Part shown: positions 3,259 through 56,354 of the stretch, one piece after another
How the letters are laid out: each line of letters opens with the position of its first letter
How positions within the stretch are numbered: the first letter of the stretch is position 1
Assembly: GCA_035358815.1 (NCBI GenBank)
Contig: DAOPQC010000009.1
Span: 2,405 to 66,404, forward strand
Source of the DNA: Thermoanaerobaculales bacterium
GTDB taxonomy: Bacteria; Acidobacteriota; Thermoanaerobaculia; Thermoanaerobaculales; Sulfomarinibacteraceae
Reading direction: 5' to 3'
DNA: 64,000 bases
Notes under the pieces: model-generated
Seen by the model: the letters and a program-made list of their open reading frames with translations, nothing else
Databases searched by the model: none
Told to the model about the DNA's origin: nothing
Made by a program: the position numbers and the translations under genes

Positions 3259-3568
3259 GGTCCTCGGGGGCGCTGGTCGCGGTCTGGGGTGCCCCCCCAG
3301 CGGGGCTTGACCCGGTCCTGTCAACCCACTCCAGGCGATGGTAGACTGAGCGGCGGTGGAGGGGAGGAAATTGAGAATCGGCCCGTGTGGACTTCGGCGT
3401 CCCCGGCACGCGTCTTCACGATCGAGCGCTCCAGCCCGGGTCGGCACGGCGGAGCTTCGGTCTTCTCGATGAGGGTCATCGTTGGCTGATGACGGCGGCG
3501 GGTGAACGGCCGCGCGACCGCGATCGGTCCCGTGGCCGCGAAACGCCAACCTTGAAAGGAGGCAGCAC

Positions 3569-6307
3569 ATGTCCGAGCGTCTCACCCTGGACGGCAGGGA
3601 GGTTCCTTTCCGACCGGGACAGACGGTCCTGGAGGTAGCCCGGGAGAACCACGTCAGGATCCCAGCGCTGTGCTACCACCGCAAGACCGGTCCCGCGGGT
3701 CGGTGCCGGGTCTGCGTGGTCGAGGTCGAGGGCCAGCGCGGCCTGGCCACCTCCTGCAACCTTGCCGCCAGGGCGGGGATGGTCGTCCACACCGCCTCCG
3801 AGCGTGTCCTCGAGGTGCGGCGTATGGTCGTCAACCTGCTGCTCTCGAGCGGCGAGCACAACTGCCTCGCCTGCGAGCAGAACGGCCACTGCGAGCTCCA
3901 GGACGCGGCGTACCAGCTCGGCATCGAGACGCCGGCCTTCGTCCTGTCGGGGCCCAAGGCCGAGGTGGACGACTCGAGCGAGATGATCGTCTTCGACCAC
4001 CGCAAGTGCATCCAGTGCGGCCGCTGCATCGCCGCCTGCAACCACGTGGTGGTGAACGAGGTTCTGGGCATGGCCGAGCGGGGCTTCGAGGCCAGGGTCG
4101 TGTGCGACCTCGACCAGCCGATGTCCCGGTCGACCTGCGTCCAGTGCGGCGAGTGCGTTCAGCTCTGCCCGGTGGGCGCGATCATCGACAAGAAGGCCGT
4201 CGGACGGGGCCGCGCCTGGGAGCTCGAGCAGGTCAACACCACCTGCCCCTACTGCGGGGTCGGCTGCCAGGTCACCCTGCACGTGGACCGCGGCGCGAAC
4301 CGGATCGTCCGGGTCACCGGCCGGGAGGTCCCGCCGAACGACGGCATGCTGTGCGTGAAGGGGCGCTTCGGGTACGAGTTTCCGTCGAGCCCCAAGCGGC
4401 TCACCCAGCCGATGGTCCGCAAGAACGGGAAGCTCGAGCCGGTGTCTTGGGACGAGGCGCTCGACTACACGGCGCAGCGGATCGGCGACATCGTCGCCAA
4501 GCACGGGCCCGACGTCTTCTCGGCCTTCGGGTCGGGGCGCATCACCAACGAGAACAACTACGCGATCGCGAAGTTCACGAGGGCGGTCATCAAGACCAAC
4601 AACGTCGATCACTGCGCTCGAACGTGACACGCCCCCACTGTCGCCGGTCTGGCGACAAGCTTCGGCTCGGGCGCGATGACCAACAGCATCCAGGAGCTCC
4701 AGGACGCTGACCTGATCTTCGTGATCGGCTCCAACATGACCGAGGCCCACCCGGTCATCTCGTACTACGTCAAGCGGGCCGTCAACAAGGGGGCGACCCT
4801 GATCGTGAACGATCCGCGGCGGACCGACCTCTGCCGGTGGGCAGCCCACCATGTCCAGATCAAGGTCGGCTCGGACATCGCGTACATCAACGGCCTGATC
4901 AACGAGATCTTCAAGAACGGGTGGGCGAACGAGGACTTCATCAGGGAGCACACCGAGAACCCGGACGAGATGCGCGCCTGGGCCGAGTCGTACCCCGTGG
5001 AGCGCGCCAGCGAGATCTGCGGCGTGCCGGTGGCCAGGATGAAGGAGATCGCCCGGCTGCTCGGCACGGCCAAGTCGGTGAGCGTCTGCTACACCCTGGG
5101 CATCACCGAGCACATCTGCGGCACCGACAACGTGAAGACGCTCGCCAACCTGCAGATGGTCCTGGGCAACCTCGGCAAGCACGGCGCCGGGCTGAACCCG
5201 CTGCGTGGGCAGAACAACGTCCAGGGAGCCTGCGACATGGGCGCCCTGCCCAACGTGTTCCACAACTACCAGCCGGTCACCGACGCCAAGGCGATCGAGA
5301 AGATGGAGAAGGACTGGGGCGTCACCGGCCTGTCGAGGACCGCCGGCTACAAGATGCCCACCATGCTCCACAAGGCGCTCGACGGCGGCACCAGGGTGCT
5401 CTACTGCGTTGCGGACAACACGGTCCAGACCGAGCCGCACATGGCGCACACGATCAAGGAGCTGCAGGCGCTGGAGCTCCTGGTGGTCACCGACATCTTC
5501 CCGAACCTGACCACCGCCCTGGCGCACGTGGTCTTTCCGGACTACAGCTGGGGCGAGGAGGAGGGCACGTTCTCGAACACCGAGCGGCGCGTGCAGCGCG
5601 TGCGCCGGGCCCTCACCCCGCCCGAGGGCTGCCGGCCGAACTGGTGGATCCTCCAGGAGCTCGGCAAGCGGCTGGGCTACGACCTCGGGTTTACGTCGGC
5701 GCGGGCGATCTGGGAGGACATGCGCCGGACCGCGACCAGCTACGCCGGCATCACTCACGAGCGCATCGAGGACGTGGGCCTGCAGTGGCCGTGCCCGACG
5801 CTCGAGCACCCCGGGACGGCGTTCCTGCACAAGGACGGCAAGTTCTCCCGCGGCAAAGGGCTGTTCTGCAAGACCGACTGGATCCCACCGGCCGAGGTCG
5901 TGGACGAGGAGTACCCGCTGGTGCTGTCGACCGGCCGCCGGCTCTGGCACTACCACTCCGGCACGCAGACCCGGAACTCGGTCGGGCTCGAGAACCTCTT
6001 CCCCGAGGAGCTCCTGGAGATGCACCCGACCGATGCCTCTCCGCTCGGGATCGCGAGCGGCGATCTGGTCAAGGCGGTGAGCCGCCGCGGCGAGGTCACG
6101 CTGCGCGCCTGGGTCAACGAGCGCGCGGCGCCCGGCCTGTGCTGGATGGCCTTCCACTTCGAAGAGGCGTGCGCCAACGTGCTCACCATCGATGCGTTCG
6201 ATCCGGTCACCGAGACGGCCGAGTACAAGGTGTGCGCGATCCGGGTCGAGAAGGTCCGGGACGGCGAGGCCCCGATGGAGGACCTCCGACGCCAGGCCCG
6301 GCCCTGA
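3569..6307 (+). CDS. fdhA: Formate dehydrogenase catalytic (alpha) subunit, selenocysteine-containing, NuoG-like N-terminus (912 aa with UGA=Sec at 4625-4627)
   Basis: ORFs 3569..4627 and 4676..6307 share one frame (both start = 2 mod 3). The peptide across the TGA reads [28 protein letters not shown], the conserved Sec/Cys active-site context of FdhF/FdnG. N-terminal 2Fe-2S (CYHRK..CRVC) and 4Fe-4S motifs (CIQCGRCIAAC, CVQCGECVQLCP, CPYCGVGC) are present. RBS is gaaaggagg, 8 nt upstream of the ATG. Confidence 0.9.
4625..4656 (+). promoter_or_regulatory. UGA(Sec) codon plus bacterial SECIS-like hairpin
   Basis: TGA at 4625-4627. A perfect 6-bp stem, gtcgcc (4640-4645) / ggcgac (4651-4656), starts 12 nt downstream. 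Its apical loop GGUCU is the same loop sequence as in the E. coli fdhF SECIS. Confidence 0.75.
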
Positions 6308-8546: not shown

Positions 8547-8930
8547 ATGCCCAAGAAGATCCTGGTGGTTGATGACGACCCGGACATCCAGGAGTTCTGC
8601 CGCACGATCCTCGAGGCGGCGGGCTATCTGGTGGTGTCGGCCGCGAGTGCCCGCGAAGGGCACCAGCAGGTGACAACCGGGAAGCCCGACCTGGTGGTGC
8701 TGGACGTGATCATGGAGGAGGCCGACTCGGGCTTCAAGGTCGCCCAGGACCTGGCCAAGAGCAACCCCGGCCTGCCCATTCTGATGCTGTCCTCGATCGC
8801 CAGCGCGGCGGAGCAGGTGTTCGACACCAGCACCCTGCCGGTGGCGGCGCTGGTCAGCAAGCCGATCACGCCCAGGGAGCTGCTGCAACAGGTCGAGAGG
8901 CTGCTGGCCGCCGGGAAGCGGCCGGCTTGA
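8547..8930 (+). CDS. Single-domain response regulator (CheY-like receiver)
   Basis: VVDDDPD acidic pocket, phospho-acceptor context DLVVLDVIM, LMLSS, and conserved SKPI lysine. Confidence 0.85.
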   Translation: MPKKILVVDDDPDIQEFCRTILEAAGYLVVSAASAREGHQQVTTGKPDLVVLDVIMEEADSGFKVAQDLAKSNPGLPILMLSSIASAAEQVFDTSTLPVAALVSKPITPRELLQQVERLLAAGKRPA

Positions 8931-8992
8931 AGTCAGCCCGCTCCGGTGGGGGCGGGAGCTTGCCCTTCGTCGTAAAGGAAAGGGGGAGAAAC

Positions 8993-10267
8993 ATGGGAAC
9001 CGAGGCACTGGAGAAGAAGCGCTGGGTGATCGCGATCGCCGCCGTCGTCATGCAGCTGTGCCTGGGCACGGTCTACGCGTGGTCGGTGTTCAAGATCCCG
9101 CTCAAGCAGGCCCATGGCTGGGCCGAGACCCCGACCCAGGTCACCTTCATGATCTGCATCGGCATGATCGGCCTCTCCGCCGCCTTCGGCGGGATGCTGG
9201 TCGACAAGAAGGGGCCGCGGTTCGTGGCCACGCTCGGCGGCATCCTGTTCGGGGTCGGCACGCTGCTGGCGGGCCTGGCCGATCAGGTCGGCAACCTGTG
9301 GCTGCTCTACCTCGGCTTCGGCCTGATCGCCGGCCTGGGCAACGGCTTCGGCTACGTCACGCCGATCGCCACCCTGATCCGCTGGTTCCCGGACAAGCGC
9401 GGCCTGGTGACTGGCCTCGCAGTCATGGGCTTCGGCGCCGGCGCGTTCTTCATGGGCCGCATCGCGCCGCAGATGATCGCCAGCCACCAGGTCAAGGACC
9501 AGGCCGGCGCGGTGATCGCCTCCGGCGTCGCTCCCACCTTCTACATCTGGGGCCTCATCTTCCTGGTGGCGGTGACGGCCGCCGCCCAGCTGTTCAAGAA
9601 CCCGCCCGCCGGCTGGCTGCCGGCCGGCTTCACGCCGCCCGCCAAGACGGTGTCGGCGGCCGACTCGCGCAACCTGGCCGAGGCCGTCCGCACGCCGCAG
9701 TGGTGGATGCTGTGGGCCATGCTGTTCCTCAACATCTCGGCCGGGCTCGGGCTGCTGTCGCAGCTGTCGCCCATGGCCCAGGAGTTGCTCAAGGTCAAGA
9801 TCAGCGACCCGGCCAAGCTCGCGATCGCCGGCGGCACCATCCTCGCCATTGCCTCGATCTTCAACGGCCTCGGCCGGCTGTTCTGGGCCTGGCTGTCCGA
9901 CGGCATCGGCCGCAAGGCGGTGTTCGTGACCATGTTCATCACCCAGGCCATCCTCTACGTGTTCCTGCCCCAGGTGGCCACGGCGACGCTGTTCGCGATC
10001 ATCGCCTGCTACCTGCTGGCCTGCTATGGCGGCGGCTTCGCCACCATGCCGGCCTTTGCCGCGGACAGCTTCGGGCCGGCCTGCATCGGCCGGGTCTACG
10101 GCACCATGCTCACCGCCTGGGGCGTGGCCGGGGTGGTCGGGCCCCTGGTCTTCGCCCAGCTCAAGAAGCAGCAGGCCCTGTACGTGGCCGCCGGCCTGCT
10201 GACCGTCGGCCTGGTGATCGCCATCGCCTATCGCCGTCCGGCGCCCAAGCCGGTTGCGGCGACGTAG
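8993..10267 (+). CDS. MFS transporter, oxalate/formate antiporter (OFA) family
   Basis: ATG 8993 follows aaggaaaggggga. 12 TM-type hydrophobic profile. N-terminal LGTVYAWSVF motif characteristic of OFA-family MFS proteins. Confidence 0.8.
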   Translation: MGTEALEKKRWVIAIAAVVMQLCLGTVYAWSVFKIPLKQAHGWAETPTQVTFMICIGMIGLSAAFGGMLVDKKGPRFVATLGGILFGVGTLLAGLADQVGNLWLLYLGFGLIAGLGNGFGYVTPIATLIRWFPDKRGLVTGLAVMGFGAGAFFMGRIAPQMIASHQVKDQAGAVIASGVAPTFYIWGLIFLVAVTAAAQLFKNPPAGWLPAGFTPPAKTVSAADSRNLAEAVRTPQWWMLWAMLFLNISAGLGLLSQLSPMAQELLKVKISDPAKLAIAGGTILAIASIFNGLGRLFWAWLSDGIGRKAVFVTMFITQAILYVFLPQVATATLFAIIACYLLACYGGGFATMPAFAADSFGPACIGRVYGTMLTAWGVAGVVGPLVFAQLKKQQALYVAAGLLTVGLVIAIAYRRPAPKPVAAT

Positions 10268-15509: not shown

Positions 15510-17033
<1,524 letters not shown>

Positions 17034-17172
17034 CCCTTCGCGGACAGTCAGCTCGCGGTCGCCTTCACCCACATGCAGGTGTGTACCCTTTTCAGGTGTT
17101 CCTGTCAACCATATTTGGGTGCTGTTGTTGTGTGCAAATGCCAAAATATTGAAATGAATGATGTTGCGGACC

Positions 17173-17188
17173 TGGCGTGAGTCTTGCT
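17173..17188 (+). promoter_or_regulatory. Candidate sigma-54 (-24/-12) promoter for the USP gene
   Basis: TGGCGT-gagtc-TTGCT has GG-N10-GC spacing matching TGGCAC-N5-TTGCW. It lies in an unusually AT-rich gap, ~68 nt upstream of ATG 17256 and divergent from a sigma-54 activator. Confidence 0.5.
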
Positions 17189-17255
17189 GAAGGCGAGTGC
17201 TGGGCGAGACGAATGACCATCGGAGCACGGCTCGCCGGCAACCGGGAGGTGCACG

Positions 17256-17744
17256 ATGTACGACACAGCACTCATGCCGTTGACCGAAACCGACCGCGAC
17301 GAGGCGACCCTGGCGCATCTGCAGTCGATGCTCGACCACAGGGGCATCGGGAAGGTGGTCCTGGTCAGGGTGGTGCAGCCGCCGCCGGTCACGGCGGTCG
17401 ACTACGCGCTCGATCCGGCGGTGGTCGCCGGGCTCGAGAAGGACCTGCGCCGACGGGCGGCGTCGTACCTGGAGTCGGTCGCCAGGCGGATCGACTGGCG
17501 GGGTGCCGGGCACGCGATCGAGGTCGTGCTCGGTGAGCCGGCCGAGGAGCTGGCACGGCTCGCCGAAGGCCGCGGGGCCGACCTGATCCTGCTCGCGCCC
17601 GATCCGCCGAGCGGCATCCAGCGCTGGTTCCGCGGCAACCTGCTCGACCGCCTGATGGGTTCGGCCCGGGTTCCGATCACCGTGCTGAGCGGACCGGCCC
17701 CCTGGAGGCGGTCGCAGGCCCGCGCCCCGCGCACCGCGGCGTAG
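17256..17744 (+). CDS. Universal stress protein (UspA) family protein
   Basis: RBS gggagg. USP-like layout: ...VLVRVV..., GEPAEELARLAEGRGADLILL, and GSARVPITVL near the C-terminus. Confidence 0.7.
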   Translation: MYDTALMPLTETDRDEATLAHLQSMLDHRGIGKVVLVRVVQPPPVTAVDYALDPAVVAGLEKDLRRRAASYLESVARRIDWRGAGHAIEVVLGEPAEELARLAEGRGADLILLAPDPPSGIQRWFRGNLLDRLMGSARVPITVLSGPAPWRRSQARAPRTAA

Positions 17745-17807
17745 ACAAAGGAATCGGCGTTCGCGGGCGCACCCGGTCTCGGGCGCGCCCGCGACGCGTT
17801 TCCGTGC

Positions 17808-29020: not shown

Positions 29021-29069
29021 GGGTCCTCCCAAAAGGCGTGGCGCCCCTCAGTGTAGCGCGGCGGCCCCC

Positions 29070-29278
29070 TCGCCCGCACCCGCGTCCGCGCCCGCTTCCG
29101 CGCCCCCGCCGTTGGGATGTCTCTCGTTCCCGTTCCCGTCCCCGTTCCCGTACCCGATGGCCGTTCGGGGTGGATTGAGTTCGTACGTGAAATTTGGAGA
29201 TTGCTGCGACGTCTGGGCGGCGTGCGGCGATCCGGGAACGGGATCGGGGTGGGGCCCTGGACCCTGACCCCGATCCCC
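29070..29278. repeat. Mosaic intergenic repeat locus A (beta C-array, 34-nt alpha module, unique core, G-arm, 11-bp hairpin)
   Basis: CCCGCN-type array at 29070-29110. Alpha module cgttcccgttcccgtccccgttcccgtacccgat at 29125-29158. Inverted partner atccgggaacgggatcggggtgggg at 29230-29254. Perfect hairpin gggatcggggt (29240-29250) / accccgatccc (29267-29277). Confidence 0.85.
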
Positions 29279-29370
29279 CAACTCCTGGTCAGGCGAATGC
29301 GCTGCAGCGACCCGGAAGCCGGAGGGCGACTGACCTCTGAGGATCGTAGACCGCACCGGGAGGGGGCGCG

Positions 29371-32758: not shown

Positions 32759-33045
32759 TCAATTCCGGGCTCAATTCCGGGCTCCAGACCCCGTTTCGAT
32801 TCCGGACTCTGGGCCGGTGCCCGTCCCCGCTTCCGCTTCCCCTTCCGCTTCCGCGCCCGGACGGTGCTCAGGACGCGGGAAAGCTGCGGGGGTCTTCGAC
32901 TTGCCACCGTGCTGGGCGGTTCGCTTCCAATGACCTACCCCCCAGGTCATCGGTGACCTTGTCGGCCCACACGGGCCCTGGGGGTGCTCAGAATGACCAC
33001 GGACAGAGTCGGAAGCGGGCGCGGAAGCGGGCGCGGACGCGGGCC
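32759..33045. repeat. Mosaic intergenic repeat locus B (12-nt tandem, C-arm, 150-nt core with hairpin, G-arm)
   Basis: tcaattccgggc x2 at 32759-32782. C-arm CGCTTCC-type at 32818-32858. Core hairpin atgacct/aggtcat at 32930-32950. G-arm at 33011-33045. Its bases 33017-33043 are the exact reverse complement of 29079-29105. Confidence 0.85.
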
Positions 33046-34500: not shown

Positions 34501-34627
34501 TCGAGGCCTCCTTGACGGTCACTCTACCAGCCCGGATCCGGGCTCACAAGCTCTTGAGAGCTGGTCTCGGCGGGGCGGTGTGGAATCGACGCGCGATGTG
34601 CCCGATGTCACTGGAGGAGAGGATATA

Positions 34628-34768
34628 GGGGATAGGGAATAGGGGATAGGGGAGAGGGGAGAGGGGAGAGGGAACAGGGGATAGGGGAGAGGGAGTAGGG
34701 GAGAGGGCCTAGCTGCCTTGTGGGGTAGCCATCCTGGCTGCCTTGTGGGGTAGCCATCCTGGCTGCCC
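34628..34768. repeat. Mosaic intergenic repeat locus C (12 G-tracts in GGGGA(T/G)A heptamer array + 25-nt tandem repeat)
   Basis: 34628-34707 holds 12 runs of G3-4 separated by 3-4 nt. 34713-34762 is ctgccttgtggggtagccatcctgg x2 (period 25) plus a partial third unit. Confidence 0.9.
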
Positions 34769-36063: not shown

Positions 36064-36125
36064 GGCTCCATGATACCGAGCCGAATGAGGTGCGGAGCGC
36101 CCGTTGTCGATTCTGACCTTCTCTC

Positions 36126-36278
36126 GGGAACGGGAACGGGGACGGGAACGACAGCTGGCCGTTGTGGGGTCGCCATCCTGGCTGCCTTGTGGGGTAGCCA
36201 TCCTGGCTGCCCGGAAGCGGGCGCGGGCGAGGGGGCGGGCGGGGGCCCTACCCCCTATTCCCTACATCCCATCCCCTC
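36126..36278. repeat. Mosaic intergenic repeat locus D (alpha G-array, 25-nt tandem, beta G-array, inverted gamma array)
   Basis: gggaacgggaacggggacgggaac at 36126-36149. 36153-36212 is ~95% identical to 34711-34768. ggaagcgggcgcgggcgagggggcgggcggggg at 36213-36245. C-rich ccctaccccctattccctacatcccatcccctc at 36246-36278. Confidence 0.9.
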
Positions 36279-38491: not shown

Positions 38492-38564
38492 CGTCCACCT
38501 CCCGTTCCGCCAACAGGCAGTGCAACCGACGTGCCAGCGGGATTTCGGGAACGCGGTGCGTTCA

Positions 38565-38940
38565 CCCGTTTCCGTTTCCGTCTCCGCGCCCCTGCCCGAG
38601 ATGGCGCTCGTGCACCGTGCGGTCTCATCGGGGACGGAGACGGGCACGGAGACGGGCAGGGAGACGGGCAGGGACGCGGGCGGCGGCCATTTGACCTGTC
38701 ACCGGTCACCGATCACTCTCCCGGAGGCGGGAACGGGAACGGGAATCCGGCTTCGCCTTCCGGCTCCGTTCGGCGAACTCCGCCGTGACGAGTCGGCTCC
38801 GCCGTGACAAGCGGGGACGGGCACCCTTCGACTCGCGGCGCTGCGGCGCCGCTCGCTCAGGGCAGGCCCCTCGGGCTCGGAAGCGGAAGCGGGCGGGCGC
38901 CCAATCCCCCAGATCCCAGATCCTGGCCGGGTGGGGGCGG
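38565..38940. repeat. Mosaic intergenic repeat locus E
   Basis: C-arm cccgtttccgtttccgtctccgcgcccctgcccg at 38565-38598. 31-nt core. G-arm (GGAGACGGGCA-type) at 38630-38686. gggaacgggaacgggaat at 38729-38746. ggaagcggaagcgggcgggcgc at 38879-38900. cccagat x2 at 38908-38921. Confidence 0.8.
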
Positions 38941-48046: not shown

Positions 48047-49621
48047 ATGAGTGCGAAGCGTGGGGGCACCAGGAAGAACGCGAAGGCCACGGCGACGGCT
48101 CTCGACAAGCTGGGGATCGGTCCCCTGCTCGGGCTCCAGCCGGTCAATCAGGGCGCGTGCACCGGGAAGTGGATCTCGTGTGCGGGCGGCCAGGAGCTGA
48201 TCTCGGTCAGCCCGGCGGACGGCTCGCCGATCGCCGCTGTGCGGCAGGCCGACGAGGCCGCGTACGAAAAGGTCGTTGCGGAGGCTGTGGCCGCGTTCCC
48301 GGCCTGGCGGATGACGCCGGCACCGGCGCGCGGCGAGGTCGTCCGCGACCTGGGCAACGAGCTCCGCGCGGTCAAGGAGCCGCTCGGCAAGCTGGTGTCG
48401 CTCGAGATGGGGAAGATCCTCTCCGAAGGGCTCGGCGAGGTCCAGGAGATGATCGACATGTGCGACTTCGCGGTCGGGCTGTCGCGCCAGCTCTCCGGTC
48501 CGACGATGGCCTCCGAGCGCCCGCGCCACCGGATGTACGAGCAGTGGCATCCGCTGGGGGTGGTCGGCATCATCACCGCCTTCAACTTCCCGGTGGCGGT
48601 CTGGGCGTGGAACGCGGCGCTGGCCGCGGTGTGCGGCGACACCATGGTCTGGAAGCCGTCGTCCGACACCCCGCTGACCGCGATCGCGGTCCAGAACATC
48701 TGCAACCGGGTGATGGAGCGGCACAATCTCTCCGGGATCTTCAACCTGGTGATCGGCCCCGGCCGCACCGTTGGCGAGCGGATGATCAACGACCGGCGGG
48801 TGCCGCTGGTCTCGTTCACCGGCTCGACCGCGATGGGCCGGCGCGTGTCCCAGGCCACGGCCACCCGCTTCGGGCGCAGCATCCTCGAGCTCGGCGGCAA
48901 CAACGCGATCCTGGTCGAGCCGGACGCCGATCTCGACCTGACGCTGCGCGCCGTCCTGTTCGCCGCGGTCGGCACCGCCGGCCAGCGCTGCACCTCCCTG
49001 CGCCGGCTGTTCCTGCACAAGAAGATCGCGAAGCAGTTCCTGGCCCGTCTGGTCAAGGCCTACGGCAGCATCACGATCGGCAACCCACTCGAGAAGGGCG
49101 TGCTGATGGGTCCGCTGGTCAACGCGGCCGCGGTCGAGGACTACCTCGCGGCACTCGCCACGGCCCGCAAGCAAGGCGGCAAGATCCTGTACGGTGGCGG
49201 CGTGGTCGACCGGCGTGGATTCTTCGTCGAGCCGGCCATCGTCAAGCTCTCGTCGCAGGTCCCGATCGCCCGCGAGGAGACGTTCGCGCCGATCCTCTAC
49301 GTCATGGAGTACGACGACCTCGAGCAGGCGATCGCGGTCCACAACTCGGTCGACCAGGGCCTGTCCTCCGCGGTCTTCACCTCGAGCATGTACTCGGCGG
49401 AGAAGTTCCTCTCCCACGAGGGCTCGGACTGCGGCATCGCCAACGTCAACATCGGCACCTCCGGTGCCGAGATCGGCGGCGCCTTCGGCGGCGAGAAGGA
49501 GACTGGCGGCGGGCGCGAGGCGGGATCGGACGCCTGGAAGGCCTACATGCGGCGCCAGACCTGCACCATCAACTGGAGCAGTCAGCTGCCGCTCGCGCAG
49601 GGCGTGAAGTTCGACGTCTAG
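48047..49621 (+). CDS. Aldehyde dehydrogenase, ALDH7/alpha-aminoadipic (piperideine-6-carboxylate) semialdehyde dehydrogenase-like
   Basis: FTGSTAMGR, ELGGNNA, and catalytic Cys GTAGQRCTS. ALDH7-type C-terminus: NVNIGTSGAEIGGAFGGEKETGGGREAGSDAWKAYMRR. Confidence 0.85.
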   Translation: MSAKRGGTRKNAKATATALDKLGIGPLLGLQPVNQGACTGKWISCAGGQELISVSPADGSPIAAVRQADEAAYEKVVAEAVAAFPAWRMTPAPARGEVVRDLGNELRAVKEPLGKLVSLEMGKILSEGLGEVQEMIDMCDFAVGLSRQLSGPTMASERPRHRMYEQWHPLGVVGIITAFNFPVAVWAWNAALAAVCGDTMVWKPSSDTPLTAIAVQNICNRVMERHNLSGIFNLVIGPGRTVGERMINDRRVPLVSFTGSTAMGRRVSQATATRFGRSILELGGNNAILVEPDADLDLTLRAVLFAAVGTAGQRCTSLRRLFLHKKIAKQFLARLVKAYGSITIGNPLEKGVLMGPLVNAAAVEDYLAALATARKQGGKILYGGGVVDRRGFFVEPAIVKLSSQVPIAREETFAPILYVMEYDDLEQAIAVHNSVDQGLSSAVFTSSMYSAEKFLSHEGSDCGIANVNIGTSGAEIGGAFGGEKETGGGREAGSDAWKAYMRRQTCTINWSSQLPLAQGVKFDV

Positions 49622-49700
49622 GTGTTCGCGCCGCGTTGGCCTCTTCGGAGCACGGCGTAGCCCGCAGTGCTGGCGATCGGCCTCCGCGGCGCGAACACCT
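49620..49700 (+). other. 16-bp perfect inverted repeat (long stem-loop) abutting the ALDH stop codon
   Basis: aggtgttcgcgccgcg (49620-49635) pairs with cgcggcgcgaacacct (49685-49700). 49-nt loop with internal gcac/gtgc helix. No T-run. Confidence 0.7.
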
Positions 49701-49786
49701 CGGGATGCGCTGCGCGCATCCAATTGCGGTGCGGGGCGGAGGCCGGCGTCAAGCACCTCGACAGCGGGCGCGCATCGGGTTTGGTA

Positions 49787-49924
49787 CGTTCCCGTTCCCG
49801 TGCCCGCTCCCGTACCCGATGGCGGATTCCTGCCCACTATTGCGCGGAGCCGTGGGAGCCAAGCCGGTTTCACCTCCGTCCTCTTCTGCAATCGGGAACG
49901 GGGACGGGAACGGGAGCGGGAACG
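49787..49924. repeat. Mosaic intergenic repeat locus F (34-nt alpha module, 70-nt core, inverted 34-nt alpha module)
   Basis: cgttcccgttcccgtgcccgctcccgtacccgat at 49787-49820 is 32/34 identical to 29125-29158. atcgggaacggggacgggaacgggagcgggaacg at 49891-49924. The arms are ~85% complementary. Confidence 0.9.
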
Positions 49925-50033
49925 ATCAGGAGACAGCCGTCGGGATGAACGGTCGGCGCGGCTGTGGGCGACCTCGTTGATCATGCGGTGGCGGCGTCCG
50001 GCGAGTTTTCATTCGTCGACTGAATTGAATAGT

Positions 50034-51386
50034 ATGGGCGGCATGGAAGGCCGCATTCTGATCGTCGATGACGACGCCTCGGTCCGCACCGTGCTGCGCC
50101 GGATCCTGGGCTCTGCCGGGTACAGCGTGCAGGAGGCGGGTGACGCGTTCCAGGCCCTCGACCTGCTCGATGCCCAGCCCCCGGACGCCGCCCTGCTCGA
50201 CCTCAAGATGCCCGGCATGGACGGGCTCGGGCTGATCGCCAACCTGCGCCAGCGCGGCCTCGAGATCCCGGTCGTGGTGCTGACCGGTCACGGCGACGAG
50301 TTCACCTCCCAGCAGGTGCTCGACGCCGGGGCCGCCGCCTACCTCACCAAGCCGCCCGACCGGGCCGACCTCCTGCTCGCGGTGCGCGGCGCGGTCGCCC
50401 AGGGCCGGGTGGCCCGGGAGCTGGCCGAGGCGGAGGAGCCGCCGCCGCTGCTCGGCACGAGTGTCGCCGTCGAGCTGGTCCGGCAGCAGATCGCCAGGGT
50501 CGCGCCGTCCCACGCCACGGTCCTCATCCAGGGCGAGTCGGGGACCGGCAAGGAGCTGGTGGCCCGCCGCCTGCACCACCTCTCGGAGCGGGCCCGGCGG
50601 CCGTTCGTCCGTGTCAACTGCGCGGCGATCCCGAGCGAGCTCATCGAGTCCGAGCTGTTCGGCCACGAGAAGGGATCGTTCACCGGCGCCCACCGCCGGC
50701 AGATCGGCAAGTTCGTCCAGGCCGACAGCGGCACCATCTTCCTCGACGAGGTCGGCGACATGAGCCTGAGCACCCAGGCCAAGGTGCTGCGGGTGCTGCA
50801 GGACGGCGAGGTCGAGCCGGTCGGCGCCGGCCGTCCGTTCCAGGTCGACGTGCGGGTGGTGGCGGCCACCAACAAGGACCTGCCGGCCAACGTCCGCGAG
50901 GCCACCTTCCGCGAGGACCTCTACTACCGGCTGGCGGTGGTGGTGCTGGTGACCCCGCCGCTGCGCGACCACCTGGACGACATTCCGCTCCTGGTCGACC
51001 ACTTCACCGCCCACTACTGCCGCGAGTACAACCGCCGCCCCAAGCGGTGGAGCCCGGCGGCGCTTGAGCAGCTGCGCCGGCACCGCTGGCCGGGGAACGT
51101 CCGCGAGCTGAAGAACGTCGTCGAGCGGGCCGTCATCATGGAGCTCGAGGACACCATCGACCGGGTCGCGATCGCCGGCGCTCCGGGCGCGGCCGCGGGC
51201 GCCGAGAGCCTGCTCGATGCGTCGACGCTGGCCGCGTTCCAGCAGGCGTCCGAGATCGCCTACCTGCGCCACCAGCTCGACCGCCACGGCTGGAACGTCG
51301 CCGCGACGGCACGGGCCATCGACACCCCGCGCTCGAACCTCTACAAGAAGCTCCAGGCGTATGGGATCAGCCGGGAGGACACGTGA
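50034..51386 (+). CDS. NtrC-family sigma-54-dependent response regulator
   Basis: Receiver domain (ILIVDDD...[11 protein letters not shown]). AAA+ domain with GESGTGKE and [16 protein letters not shown]-terminal Fis-type HTH. Start ATG 50034 or 50043. Confidence 0.9.
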
Positions 51387-51967
51387 TCAACTGCATCACC
51401 CTCGCCGATCTGGCGGTCCATGGCGCCCACCAGAAGGGCCACTTTCGCCTCTCCTCCGGGCTCCACTCGTCCGACTACCTGCAGTGCGCCCTCTACCTCG
51501 CCAACCCGGTGCGCGCCGAGCGCGCCGGCCAGGAGCTGGCGCAGTCGATCACCGCGGCGATGGTCGAGCCGGGTGCGATCGTCGCACCAGCCCTCGGCGG
51601 GCTGATCATCGGGCACGAGACCGCGCGAGCGTTCAGGGTGCCGTTCTTCTTCACCGAGCGGGTGGAGGGGAAGATGGCGCTGCGCCGGGGCTTCGGGGTC
51701 GATCCCAAGCAGGCGATCGTGGTCGTCGAGGACGTGGTGACGACCGGCGGCTCGTCGAACGAGGTCATCGACCTGCTCGAGGGCCTCGGCGCCTGCGTCA
51801 TCGGCGTCGCGTCGCTGGTGAACCGCTCGGACGCTGACAACCCCTTCGACCCTCGGCCCTACACCGCCCTGCTGCGGGCCTCGTTCCCGACCTGGAAGCC
51901 CACCGCATGCCCGCTCTGCCGGCAGGGCAGGCCGCTCGTCAAGCCGGGGTCGAGGCCGGTCAAGTAG
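51383..51967 (+). CDS. pyrE: Orotate phosphoribosyltransferase
   Basis: GHFRLSSGLHS and the PRPP loop VVVVEDVVTTGGS. The GTG start overlaps the stop of the upstream regulator (gtga). Confidence 0.85.
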   Translation: MINCITLADLAVHGAHQKGHFRLSSGLHSSDYLQCALYLANPVRAERAGQELAQSITAAMVEPGAIVAPALGGLIIGHETARAFRVPFFFTERVEGKMALRRGFGVDPKQAIVVVEDVVTTGGSSNEVIDLLEGLGACVIGVASLVNRSDADNPFDPRPYTALLRASFPTWKPTACPLCRQGRPLVKPGSRPVK

Positions 51968-51973
51968 CGCTCA

Positions 51974-52410
51974 GGGGATAGCGATGAGGGGATAGGGGCT
52001 AGGGCCCCTGCCCGCCCGCTGCCGGCTGCACGGACGGCTTCGTTCCCGTTCCCGTTCCCGTGCCCGCGCCGATCCGCCTCCGCGCGCGACGTCGTTCCCG
52101 TTCCCGTTCCCGTTCCCGAACCCGCGCCCGCTTCCGCGCCCGGTTCCGAGCGACGTTTCGCTCCCCTTCCCGTTCCCGTCCCCGTTCCCGATCCCGTGTC
52201 CGCTCCCGCTCGTTCGCTCCGTCCTCGAGAGCGCTTCGCGCCGATTCTCTGGAAGCGCTCCCCGAGGGTGCCACCTTTGGCGATTTCGGGTCCTGAGCAA
52301 TTTGTCAGGAGCATCGTCGTCCCGAAATCGCCAAAGATGGCACGCCCGCGGGAGGCGCTTCCCTCGCTCTCTCCTCGTCCCCGGGGAGCGGAAGCGGGTG
52401 CGGGCGCAGC
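51974..52410. repeat. Mosaic intergenic repeat locus G (gamma G-array, three C-rich hexamer arrays, 113-nt imperfect palindrome, beta G-array)
   Basis: Gamma array at 51974-52004. C-arrays at 52041-52070, 52093-52147 and 52164-52212. Palindrome at 52251-52363 with 23-nt arms (52268-52290 / 52321-52343, 1 mismatch) and apical hairpin tcctga/tcagga. gagcggaagcgggtgcgggcgc at ~52385-52410. Confidence 0.9.
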
Positions 52411-55872: not shown

Positions 55873-55900
55873 GCCGCCCTTCGGGCGGCTTTTCGTTTGT
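55873..55900 (+). terminator. Rho-independent terminator after tRNA-Asp
   Basis: gccgccc-ttc(g)-gggcggc followed by ttttcgtttgt. Confidence 0.75.
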
Positions 55901-56006
55901 CTGGTGGCGGGGCCGAAGGGACTCGGTCACCGCGGAGCCAGCGGGCGGACGTACGCCGCCCACCGCCCTCTCCGGCCCGGCTGACGCCGGGCCTGCGACC
56001 CCCACG
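55886..56006. repeat. 121-nt direct repeat, copy 1 (contains inverted copy of tRNA-Asp 3' end)
   Basis: Base-for-base identical to 56234-56354 (checked by eye over all 121 nt). 55905-55925, tggcggggccgaagggactcg, is the reverse complement of tRNA-Asp 55837-55857. Confidence 0.95.
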
Positions 56007-56130: not shown

Positions 56131-56233
56131 GCGCGCTGTCACGGGCAGCCCGCGTTGCGGCCTGCCGGTTCCAGCCTGCGCAGCTGCCGGCGGTGTCGAG
56201 CCCTTCCCTCGTGACCCCGGCGACCCTGGCGGT

Positions 56234-56354
56234 CGGCTTTTCGTTTGTCTGGTGGCGGGGCCGAAGGGACTCGGTCACCGCGGAGCCAGCGGGCGGACGT
56301 ACGCCGCCCACCGCCCTCTCCGGCCCGGCTGACGCCGGGCCTGCGACCCCCACG
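56234..56354. repeat. 121-nt direct repeat, copy 2
   Basis: Identical to 55886-56006 at an offset of 348 nt. Preceded by the 32-nt block 56201-56232, identical to 56046-56077. Confidence 0.95.

Follow-up and report, generated by a model that had tools for sequence, protein, structure and literature searches.

An inverted pair of hexamer arrays upstream of ntrX and its intergenic relatives

The aldh–ntrX spacer and the anatomy of element F

The window, i.e., the whole 64,000-nt stretch of DNA analyzed here, has a G+C content of about 70%. Pfam assigned approximately 45 of its open reading frames to housekeeping, envelope, transport and regulatory genes. For the EF-G encoded in the window, named homologues were 76–79% identical and came from Thermoanaerobaculales and Candidatus Sulfomarinibacteraceae (Acidobacteriota), and the nearest homologues were found on metagenome contigs (85–93%).

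The spacer that contains element F measures 421 nt and separates an aldehyde dehydrogenase gene (aldh, stop at 49621) from ntrX. A preliminary description of this DNA had placed F in front of an NtrC-type regulator gene. This is borne out by the Pfam domains of the downstream product, i.e., Response_reg, Sigma54_activat, AAA_lid_14 and HTH_8, a Fis-type HTH, and close homologues carry the JGI name NtrX. The window encodes a second sigma-54 activator with GAF and AAA+ domains (15510–17807, minus strand), whose AAA+ region is 70% identical in DNA to that of ntrX (15777–16397 versus 51137–50517). Features of the spacer and of two related loci are listed in Table 1.

Table 1. Features of the aldh–ntrX spacer and of sister loci A and G in the window
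Feature	Position	Strand	Description
Locus A	29125–29254	+	F-like left arm and inner junction, unrelated 70-nt spacer, right arm GGGAACGGGATCGGGGTGGGG
aldh 3′ hairpin	49620–49700	+	About 77 nt, directly after the aldehyde dehydrogenase stop; outside element F (inverted-repeat search)
Small palindrome	49703–49721		GGATGCGC-TGC-GCGCATCC, 3′ of the aldh hairpin; read from the sequence
F left arm	49787–49820	+	C-rich array (CGTTCC)x5.3, CCCGAT at its end (TRF, inverted-repeat search)
F core	49821–49890		70-nt spacer between the arms
F right arm	49891–49924	+	G-rich array (CGGGAA)x5.3, ATCGGG at its start (TRF)
ntrX-proximal block	50006–50042	+	TTCAAT/TTCATT, 16–17 nt, TAGTAT, about 7 nt, ATG; ortholog-spacer alignment
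ntrX	50043–51386	+	NtrX/NtrC-type sigma-54 activator response regulator; start 118 nt downstream of F
Locus G composite	52039–52404	+	Several C-rich hexamer arrays, module M, central hairpin, degenerate M′, G-rich array

Both ends of the spacer are conserved. The aldh 3′ hairpin shows three compensatory base pairs among five relatives, and the 7-bp helix of the small palindrome GGATGCGC-N3-GCGCATCC was kept in all five sequences compared; a second copy of this palindrome is present across the spacer in L212, L215 and L001. The aldh hairpin and the ntrX-proximal block, which covers about 37 nt before the ATG, are maintained in relatives with or without the doublet. Judged from its sequence, the ntrX-proximal block might be a core promoter; it gave no match at threshold in a consensus promoter scan. 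Since F is located between these two conserved blocks, we conclude that it is dispensable for both genes. The evidence at the locus argues against F being part of ntrX control.

Element F comprises 138 nt (49787–49924), with two inverted hexamer arrays, (CGTTCC)n and (GGGAAC)n, flanking the spacer. Inverted 34-nt arms around a 70-nt core had been described before, and an inverted-repeat search recovered them as 49787–49826 and 49885–49924, i.e., arms of 40 nt each that are 83% complementary and 58 nt apart. The core length depends on the arm definition, as 34-nt arms leave a core of 70 nt and 40-nt arms leave 58 nt between them. Both arms are degenerate hexamer microsatellites of about five units and of the G3N3 type, predicted to form G-quadruplexes. 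With regular expressions, the five C3 tracts of the left arm gave a G-quadruplex-type (G4) motif on the minus strand, and the right arm, with five G3+ tracts and 3-nt loops, matched at 49894–49920. The same search found just 18 G3N3-type G4/C4 motifs in the 64-kb window, most of them inside hexamer-array loci. Because the arms are tandem hexamer arrays, the similarity between arms and between loci is largely microsatellite similarity.

When folded as single-stranded RNA, the 138 nt were predicted to pair arm to arm with −81.7 kcal/mol (z = −6.6). In register, the variable dinucleotides of one arm do not match those of the other, and the stem is therefore built from CCCG/CGGG blocks with small internal loops. 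An arm-paired fold was likewise predicted for the copies in L212, L086, L085, locus A and L208. Folded singly as DNA, the arms reached only −0.1 (left) and −1.9 kcal/mol (right) and were no better than shuffles. The core alone was unremarkable in structure (z = +0.68), and neither the inverted-repeat search nor the fold gave any self-complementarity for it.

Scans for promoters, terminators and sigma-54 sites found none in or beside F. No intrinsic terminator was detected between 49400 and 50200; the F hairpin would have a loop of 58–70 nt, and no T run follows 49924. At gathering score, Rfam matched only tRNAs in the window, and in E-value mode 49600–50060 returned only miRNA-hairpin noise far under threshold.

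We made two further observations in the window. A 125-nt direct repeat (55882–56006 and 56230–56354, 99% identical) adjoins tRNA-Val and tRNA-Asp, each copy including, in inverted orientation, a fragment of the 3′ end of tRNA-Asp; the repeats could be remains of an integration at the tRNA gene. A formate-dehydrogenase-like gene (3506–6307, plus strand) contains an in-frame TGA at 4625–4627 in the context ART-TGA-HAPTV, and the Molybdopterin domain runs across this stop. The hairpin tgtcgcc-ggtc-tggcgaca follows immediately 3′, and the TGA is probably a selenocysteine codon with a SECIS element.

The orthologous spacer in related contigs

Contigs with 80–93% NtrX identity share with the window the gene order metalloprotease, HPPK, aldh, ntrX, phosphoribosyltransferase, NYN. 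Further spacers were collected from metagenomes via a DNA pattern at the ntrX start, which yielded seven loci, too few for population statistics. The hexamer doublet occurs in 4 of 13 orthologous or related aldh–ntrX spacers, i.e., in the window and in L212 (384 nt), L086 (295 nt) and L085 (285 nt), and a fifth lineage has a (CCCGAT)n version. This is L208, with rearranged synteny, where (CCCGAT)4, 82 nt and (ATCGGG)4 end 45 nt upstream of ntrX. The preliminary description had proposed to look for empty sites in related genomes, and these were found. The spacer has no element in L084, which is the same as L209 (60 nt), L002 (60 nt), L211 (76 nt), L001 (139 nt) and L207 (37 nt), and in L210, L213 and L215 it measures about 250 nt and contains other filler, with arrays absent.

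The longest spacer, of about 1,360 nt, was found in L003, an 81% relative. Here a gene for a 23S_rRNA_IVP four-helix-bundle protein lies between aldh and ntrX (8650–10000), flanked by inverted short tandem repeats of other 6–7-nt units, i.e., AACGTT, AATTCG, GAGTCCC, GACATTC and CATTTCT. Another contig, L214 (1–236), is near-identical to L212 over the 65 nt before ntrX and unrelated further left. Its breakpoint is 22 nt right of the position of the G-rich arm in L212, and could mean that the element was the site of a rearrangement or insertion, or of a chimeric assembly.

In the four occupied spacers the arms are 82–94% identical and the cores measure 70, 71, 73 and 72 nt. For the right arm, identity between F and either L212 or L086 is 91%. 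The left arm varies in copy number, with 5.3 units in the window versus 7.5 in L212, and this length variation is a signature of slippage. Core identity to F declines from 80% in L212, where the core has the same orientation, to unrecognizable in L085.

Compared with the window and L212, L086 carries its core in the opposite orientation, with both flanks collinear. In reverse orientation, the F core aligned locally to L086 with a score of 39, compared with a maximum of 28 in shuffles, and the L212 and L086 cores are 84% identical in this orientation. BLAST of the window against L086 matched 49781–49919 to 208–62 on the minus strand and 49891–50042 to 170–320 on the plus strand. The L086 core is thus a real flip of the spacer between inverted arms. 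We also considered differential decay of a longer palindrome instead of a core inversion. For F this was rejected, as the core aligns in reverse over its whole length and is not self-complementary. For locus G compared with L001, differential decay is possible.

Array pairs elsewhere in the window and in the lineage

Copies with the same termini as F, proposed in the preliminary description as a further check, are present in the window as locus A, and related arms occur in locus G. The reported match of the left arm to 29125–29158 of locus A holds, with 32 of 34 positions identical and GG next in both; BLAST extended it to 35 of 37 (29125–29161 versus 49787–49823). The arm pattern had three matches in the window, with none expected from shuffles. 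Beyond the pure repeat, A and F also agree in their inner junction, CCCGTACCCGATGGC, and in a spacing of 70 nt. Their cores show no similarity above shuffled controls, in agreement with the earlier reading.

Similar arrays occupy the window spacers 29064–29280, 32814–33044, 34616–34767, 36125–36276, 38560–38925 and 51965–52404. All array loci of the window lie between co-directional or convergent genes and none between divergent genes, and within array pairs the unit types of the arms match. At 34616–34767 and 36125–36276, two copies of a 25-mer tandem, 98% identical over 51 nt, flank a segment of about 1.4 kb with SpoU methylase and cytidine deaminase genes. On their outer sides the tandems are bordered by (GGGGATA)n at one end of the segment and by the C-rich complement of this repeat at the other end, and the whole could be a larger repeat-bounded cassette. 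A perfect sigma-54 promoter consensus, TGGCACGTCGGTTGCA, lies at 38521–38536 on the minus strand, just upstream of a FecR/DUF6600 gene. Because this consensus is immediately downstream of the arrays of locus E, these arrays occupy the usual position of an enhancer.

We counted neighboring arrays of opposite type that were at most 350 nt apart, with a single regular expression across all data sets. In 217 kb of DNA from this lineage, a C-rich array was followed by a G-rich one 14 times, at no fewer than nine independent loci, and the reverse order was not found. Loci of NtrX paralogues from other phyla (1.3 Mb; ≤53% identity among the matches listed), which served as an unintended control, contained no pair in either order. 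Viral contigs selected for (CCCGTT)n (1.09 Mb) had two pairs of each order, one of the C-then-G pairs overlapping another array. In a separate search of the viral contigs, only 2 of 125 (CCCGTT)n sites had an inverted partner within 400 nt, i.e., the repeat is widespread there and almost never paired. From these counts we conclude that pairing and polarity are properties of the lineage and not of the microsatellite as such.

Relatives carry G-tract-free units (GGTGATA, AACGTT, AATTCG) in equivalent positions. G4 capacity is therefore probably not the conserved property. Right after the phosphoribosyltransferase stop, a heptamer array is conserved in position (window 51965–52004, L001 5397–5417, L209 4536–4601, L213 1763–1807), with 3 to 9.5 copies of GGGGATA in the window and of GGTGATA elsewhere. 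As the heptamer unit differs among relatives, G-quadruplex potential is not conserved at this site.

The family as a whole disperses. The composite 52181–52398 between the phosphoribosyltransferase and NYN genes, with C-rich array, module M, central hairpin and G-rich array, recurs at a non-orthologous site in L217 (3908–4124), directly after EF-G, with 83% identity over 218 nt. We hence conclude that some copying mechanism exists in the family. Module N (38812–38891) was also found in three more spacers (L217, L218 and L001), and the elements in the spacer after EF-G differ between the window, L216, L217 and L218, each having its own set. Modules M and N, the central hairpin and the 25-mer thus recur in varied combinations beside hexamer arrays, a mosaic behavior that resembles BIMEs and NIMEs. 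The F core had only orthologous-site matches (L212, L086) within the 217 kb of lineage DNA; with no second copy of its core in these data, mobility of F itself lacks support. The plasmid collection gave no match. In the viral contigs module M was absent, and gapped doublet patterns of both polarities matched only unrelated coding repeats; the 14-mer junction was too short for a specific search there.

Interpretation and comparison with known systems

The family unit has a C-rich (CGTTCC)n arm 5′ and a G-rich (GGGAAC)n arm 3′, on either strand, with a spacer of about 70 nt whose sequence drifts. Nothing marks F as a classical transposon or as a specific ntrX switch. Our preferred reading, which we give about an even chance, is that F belongs to a lineage-specific family of intergenic repeats that are non-coding and form hairpins, with microsatellite arms and constrained spacing, similar to REPINs, BIMEs or NIMEs. 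Such a unit would act via its structure and not as a sequence-specific ntrX signal. On single-stranded DNA or read-through RNA the arms are predicted to pair into a long imperfect stem (about −82 kcal/mol). As the C-rich arm would be made first, it could capture the emerging G-rich arm, and a hairpin would then form in preference to a G-quadruplex or an R-loop. This account rationalizes the polarity and is not a test of it, and by analogy the Xanthomonas pairs, which have the opposite polarity, speak against it. Selection for perfect pairing is not evident, since the arm dinucleotides are not complementary in register and arm lengths differ in L212. Between the aldh 3′ hairpin and the ntrX-proximal block, F most likely behaves as a REP/BIME/REPIN-type element, i.e., as a tolerated and possibly weakly useful spacer structure that may bound transcripts or supercoiling domains. 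Its spread or exchange would probably proceed by a copying or recombination process with the arrays as ends.

Some loci may have arisen by independent in-place growth of microsatellites. In an alternative reading, F is not a unit: two G4-type microsatellites of the kind known from Xanthomonas and Nostoc grew independently, would send G4 or i-motif signals in DNA or RNA if they were active at all, and left the inversion as a by-product. We regard this as unlikely. Each arm does contain four or more G3 or C3 tracts separated by 3-nt loops, arm copy number differs among relatives, and the intergenic location and gene orientation fit the repeats described by Rehm et al. 2015 (PMC4692102). However, independent growth does not account for a polarity of 14 in 14, for unit types that agree within pairs, for the inner junction common to A and F, for a spacing of 70–73 nt in A, F and the F orthologues, or for the units without G tracts at equivalent positions in relatives.

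F had been called MITE-like in the preliminary description. As a classical MITE, it would be an old insertion with a decayed interior, and the arrays would be terminal inverted repeats for a transposase encoded elsewhere. The 138-nt size, which is in the MITE range of about 50–500 bp, the inverted ends and the presence or absence among orthologous spacers agree with this, as do locus A with the same arm, inner junction and 70-nt spacing and the hexamer-armed composite at non-orthologous loci. In contrast, the ends are degenerate microsatellites of variable length, the interiors of A and F are unrelated, F has no second copy of its core in the 217 kb of lineage DNA and not one copy of the element has a target-site duplication. 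Within ±6 nt of each boundary, no abutting direct repeat of at least 4 nt was found at F or A, and the element boundaries in L212 and L086 showed just trivial 4–5-mer direct repeats. Two candidate duplications were discarded. A 287-nt insertion relative to L001 with a duplication of GCGCGCATC was rejected when two ancestral copies of the small palindrome were seen in more orthologues, and a 12–14-nt direct repeat in L212 also turned out to be the two palindrome copies, which are present in hexamer-less relatives. The search for a mobilizing enzyme, proposed together with that for duplications, was negative as well: Pfam gave no transposase, RAYT, integrase or reverse transcriptase among the approximately 45 window ORFs, no transposase was found among the called genes of L003, L207, L208 and L216, and Y1_Tnp had no match in the window ORFs or in the relatives' called genes. 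The MITE reading is thus partly supported, at the level of the family and not for F itself, and for F we consider it unlikely.

More speculatively, and in our view improbably, the hexamer doublets might be the ends of an undescribed copying system, with short cassettes capped at either end by G-strand repeats, their 3′ ends pointing outward in a telomere-like polarity. This could work by two routes. The cassettes could be made or moved by an enzyme that recognizes or synthesizes the arrays, or homologous recombination anchored in the arrays could swap them between spacers. Either route, if true, would account for the strictness of the polarity, for a spacer of fixed length, for cores that are unrelated and for the composite at non-orthologous loci.

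Very little speaks for an inverton, in which the core would carry a promoter or another oriented signal and flip via the inverted arms to alter ntrX expression. The inverted L086 core between collinear flanks and the position upstream of a regulator gene would fit, whereas a single inversion among three diverged lineages with about 80% core identity gives no sign of ongoing switching, and a spacer bounded by inverted repeats is known to flip passively. Moreover, the core has no promoter-like or sigma-54-like site, the window has no recombinase gene, eight relatives lack such an element, and the ntrX-proximal block is kept all the same. Just as improbable is a protein-binding array, for example one that serves as an upstream activating or architectural site and is recognized through its CGGGAA/TTCCCG units by an enhancer-binding or nucleoid protein: short repeated units do occur upstream of ntrX in five lineages, and those of locus E just upstream of the perfect sigma-54 consensus, but a period of 6 bp is out of step with the helical repeat, units vary by locus and lineage, arrays also lie between convergent genes (locus G) and most close orthologues are without the element.

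Returning to F as a member of a hairpin-forming repeat family, modular intergenic repeats of this kind are known from E. coli as BIMEs and from Neisseria as NIMEs, i.e., dRS3 repeats around varied RS cores. In both, short common end modules are joined to different interior modules in intergenic spacers. The lineage modules M and N, the central hairpin and the 25-mer show the same kind of variable combination. Unlike in BIMEs and NIMEs, the common modules are tandem hexamer arrays and not fixed sequences of 20–35 nt, and F has only its arms in common with other loci.

REPINs are REP doublets that form hairpins and are mobilized by RAYT transposases (Bertels & Rainey 2011, PMC3116915). Like these, F has two conserved inverted modules around a less conserved spacer, with length and hairpin capacity as the apparent constraints; it is an inverted doublet with conserved spacer length (70 nt in F, 70 nt in A and 71, 73 and 72 nt in the orthologues) and with stems predicted for all copies. 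Total lengths of about 100–140 nt, an extragenic location and persistence within a lineage are further similarities. In contrast to REP, which is itself palindromic, the arms of F are not palindromic. They are microsatellites of variable length, and no RAYT accompanies them in the window ORFs or in the relatives' called genes.

The closest described relatives of F are the inverted GGGAATC repeats of Xanthomonas. (GGGAATC)n in Xanthomonas and (GGGGAYT)n in Nostoc are G-quadruplex-forming simple sequence repeats that include inverted pairs (Rehm et al. 2015, PLoS One, PMC4692102). Like the arrays described here, they consist of about four or more short units with G3 or G4 tracts. They are strongly intergenic, mostly between co-directional or convergent genes, form many inverted pairs with tens of bases between, differ in length and sequence among close relatives and show no association with insertion sequences. 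F has the features of this class, i.e., at least four G tracts, a G-rich tandem unit and a position between aligned or convergent ORFs, its G4 being a prediction. It differs in its unit, which is the hexamer GGGAAC and not a heptamer (GGGNATC), and in polarity. In the seven Xanthomonas pairs of part 1 of S2 Table A in PMC4692102, the G-rich array always comes first on the plus strand, opposite to the C-rich array that comes first in all 14 pairs found here. Also, the F spacer is about 70 nt, compared with 21–67 nt in the Xanthomonas pairs, and the F arrays are not hard against neighboring ORFs, unlike those of Xanthomonas and Nostoc; the phylum is a different one.

Other lineage-wide tandem repeats of 6–7 nt that are concentrated between genes are the STRR heptanucleotide repeats in cyanobacteria and, in Beggiatoaceae, the TAACTGA direct repeats (MacGregor 2015, PMC4679880). 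Unlike F, which is an inverted doublet with a fixed spacer, they are mostly single direct arrays near start codons.

For annotation, these loci are a warning, as in high-GC uncultured genomes they yield spurious ORFs and MITE calls. Inverted pairs of G-rich microsatellites were known, and without an explanation, from Xanthomonas and Nostoc. The arrays described here are a second, independent version in another phylum that differs in unit length and polarity and adds a constant spacer, a spacer inversion and evidence of dispersal. Two contrasting systems make the question more tractable whether such doublets are replicators, structural punctuation or mutational by-products.
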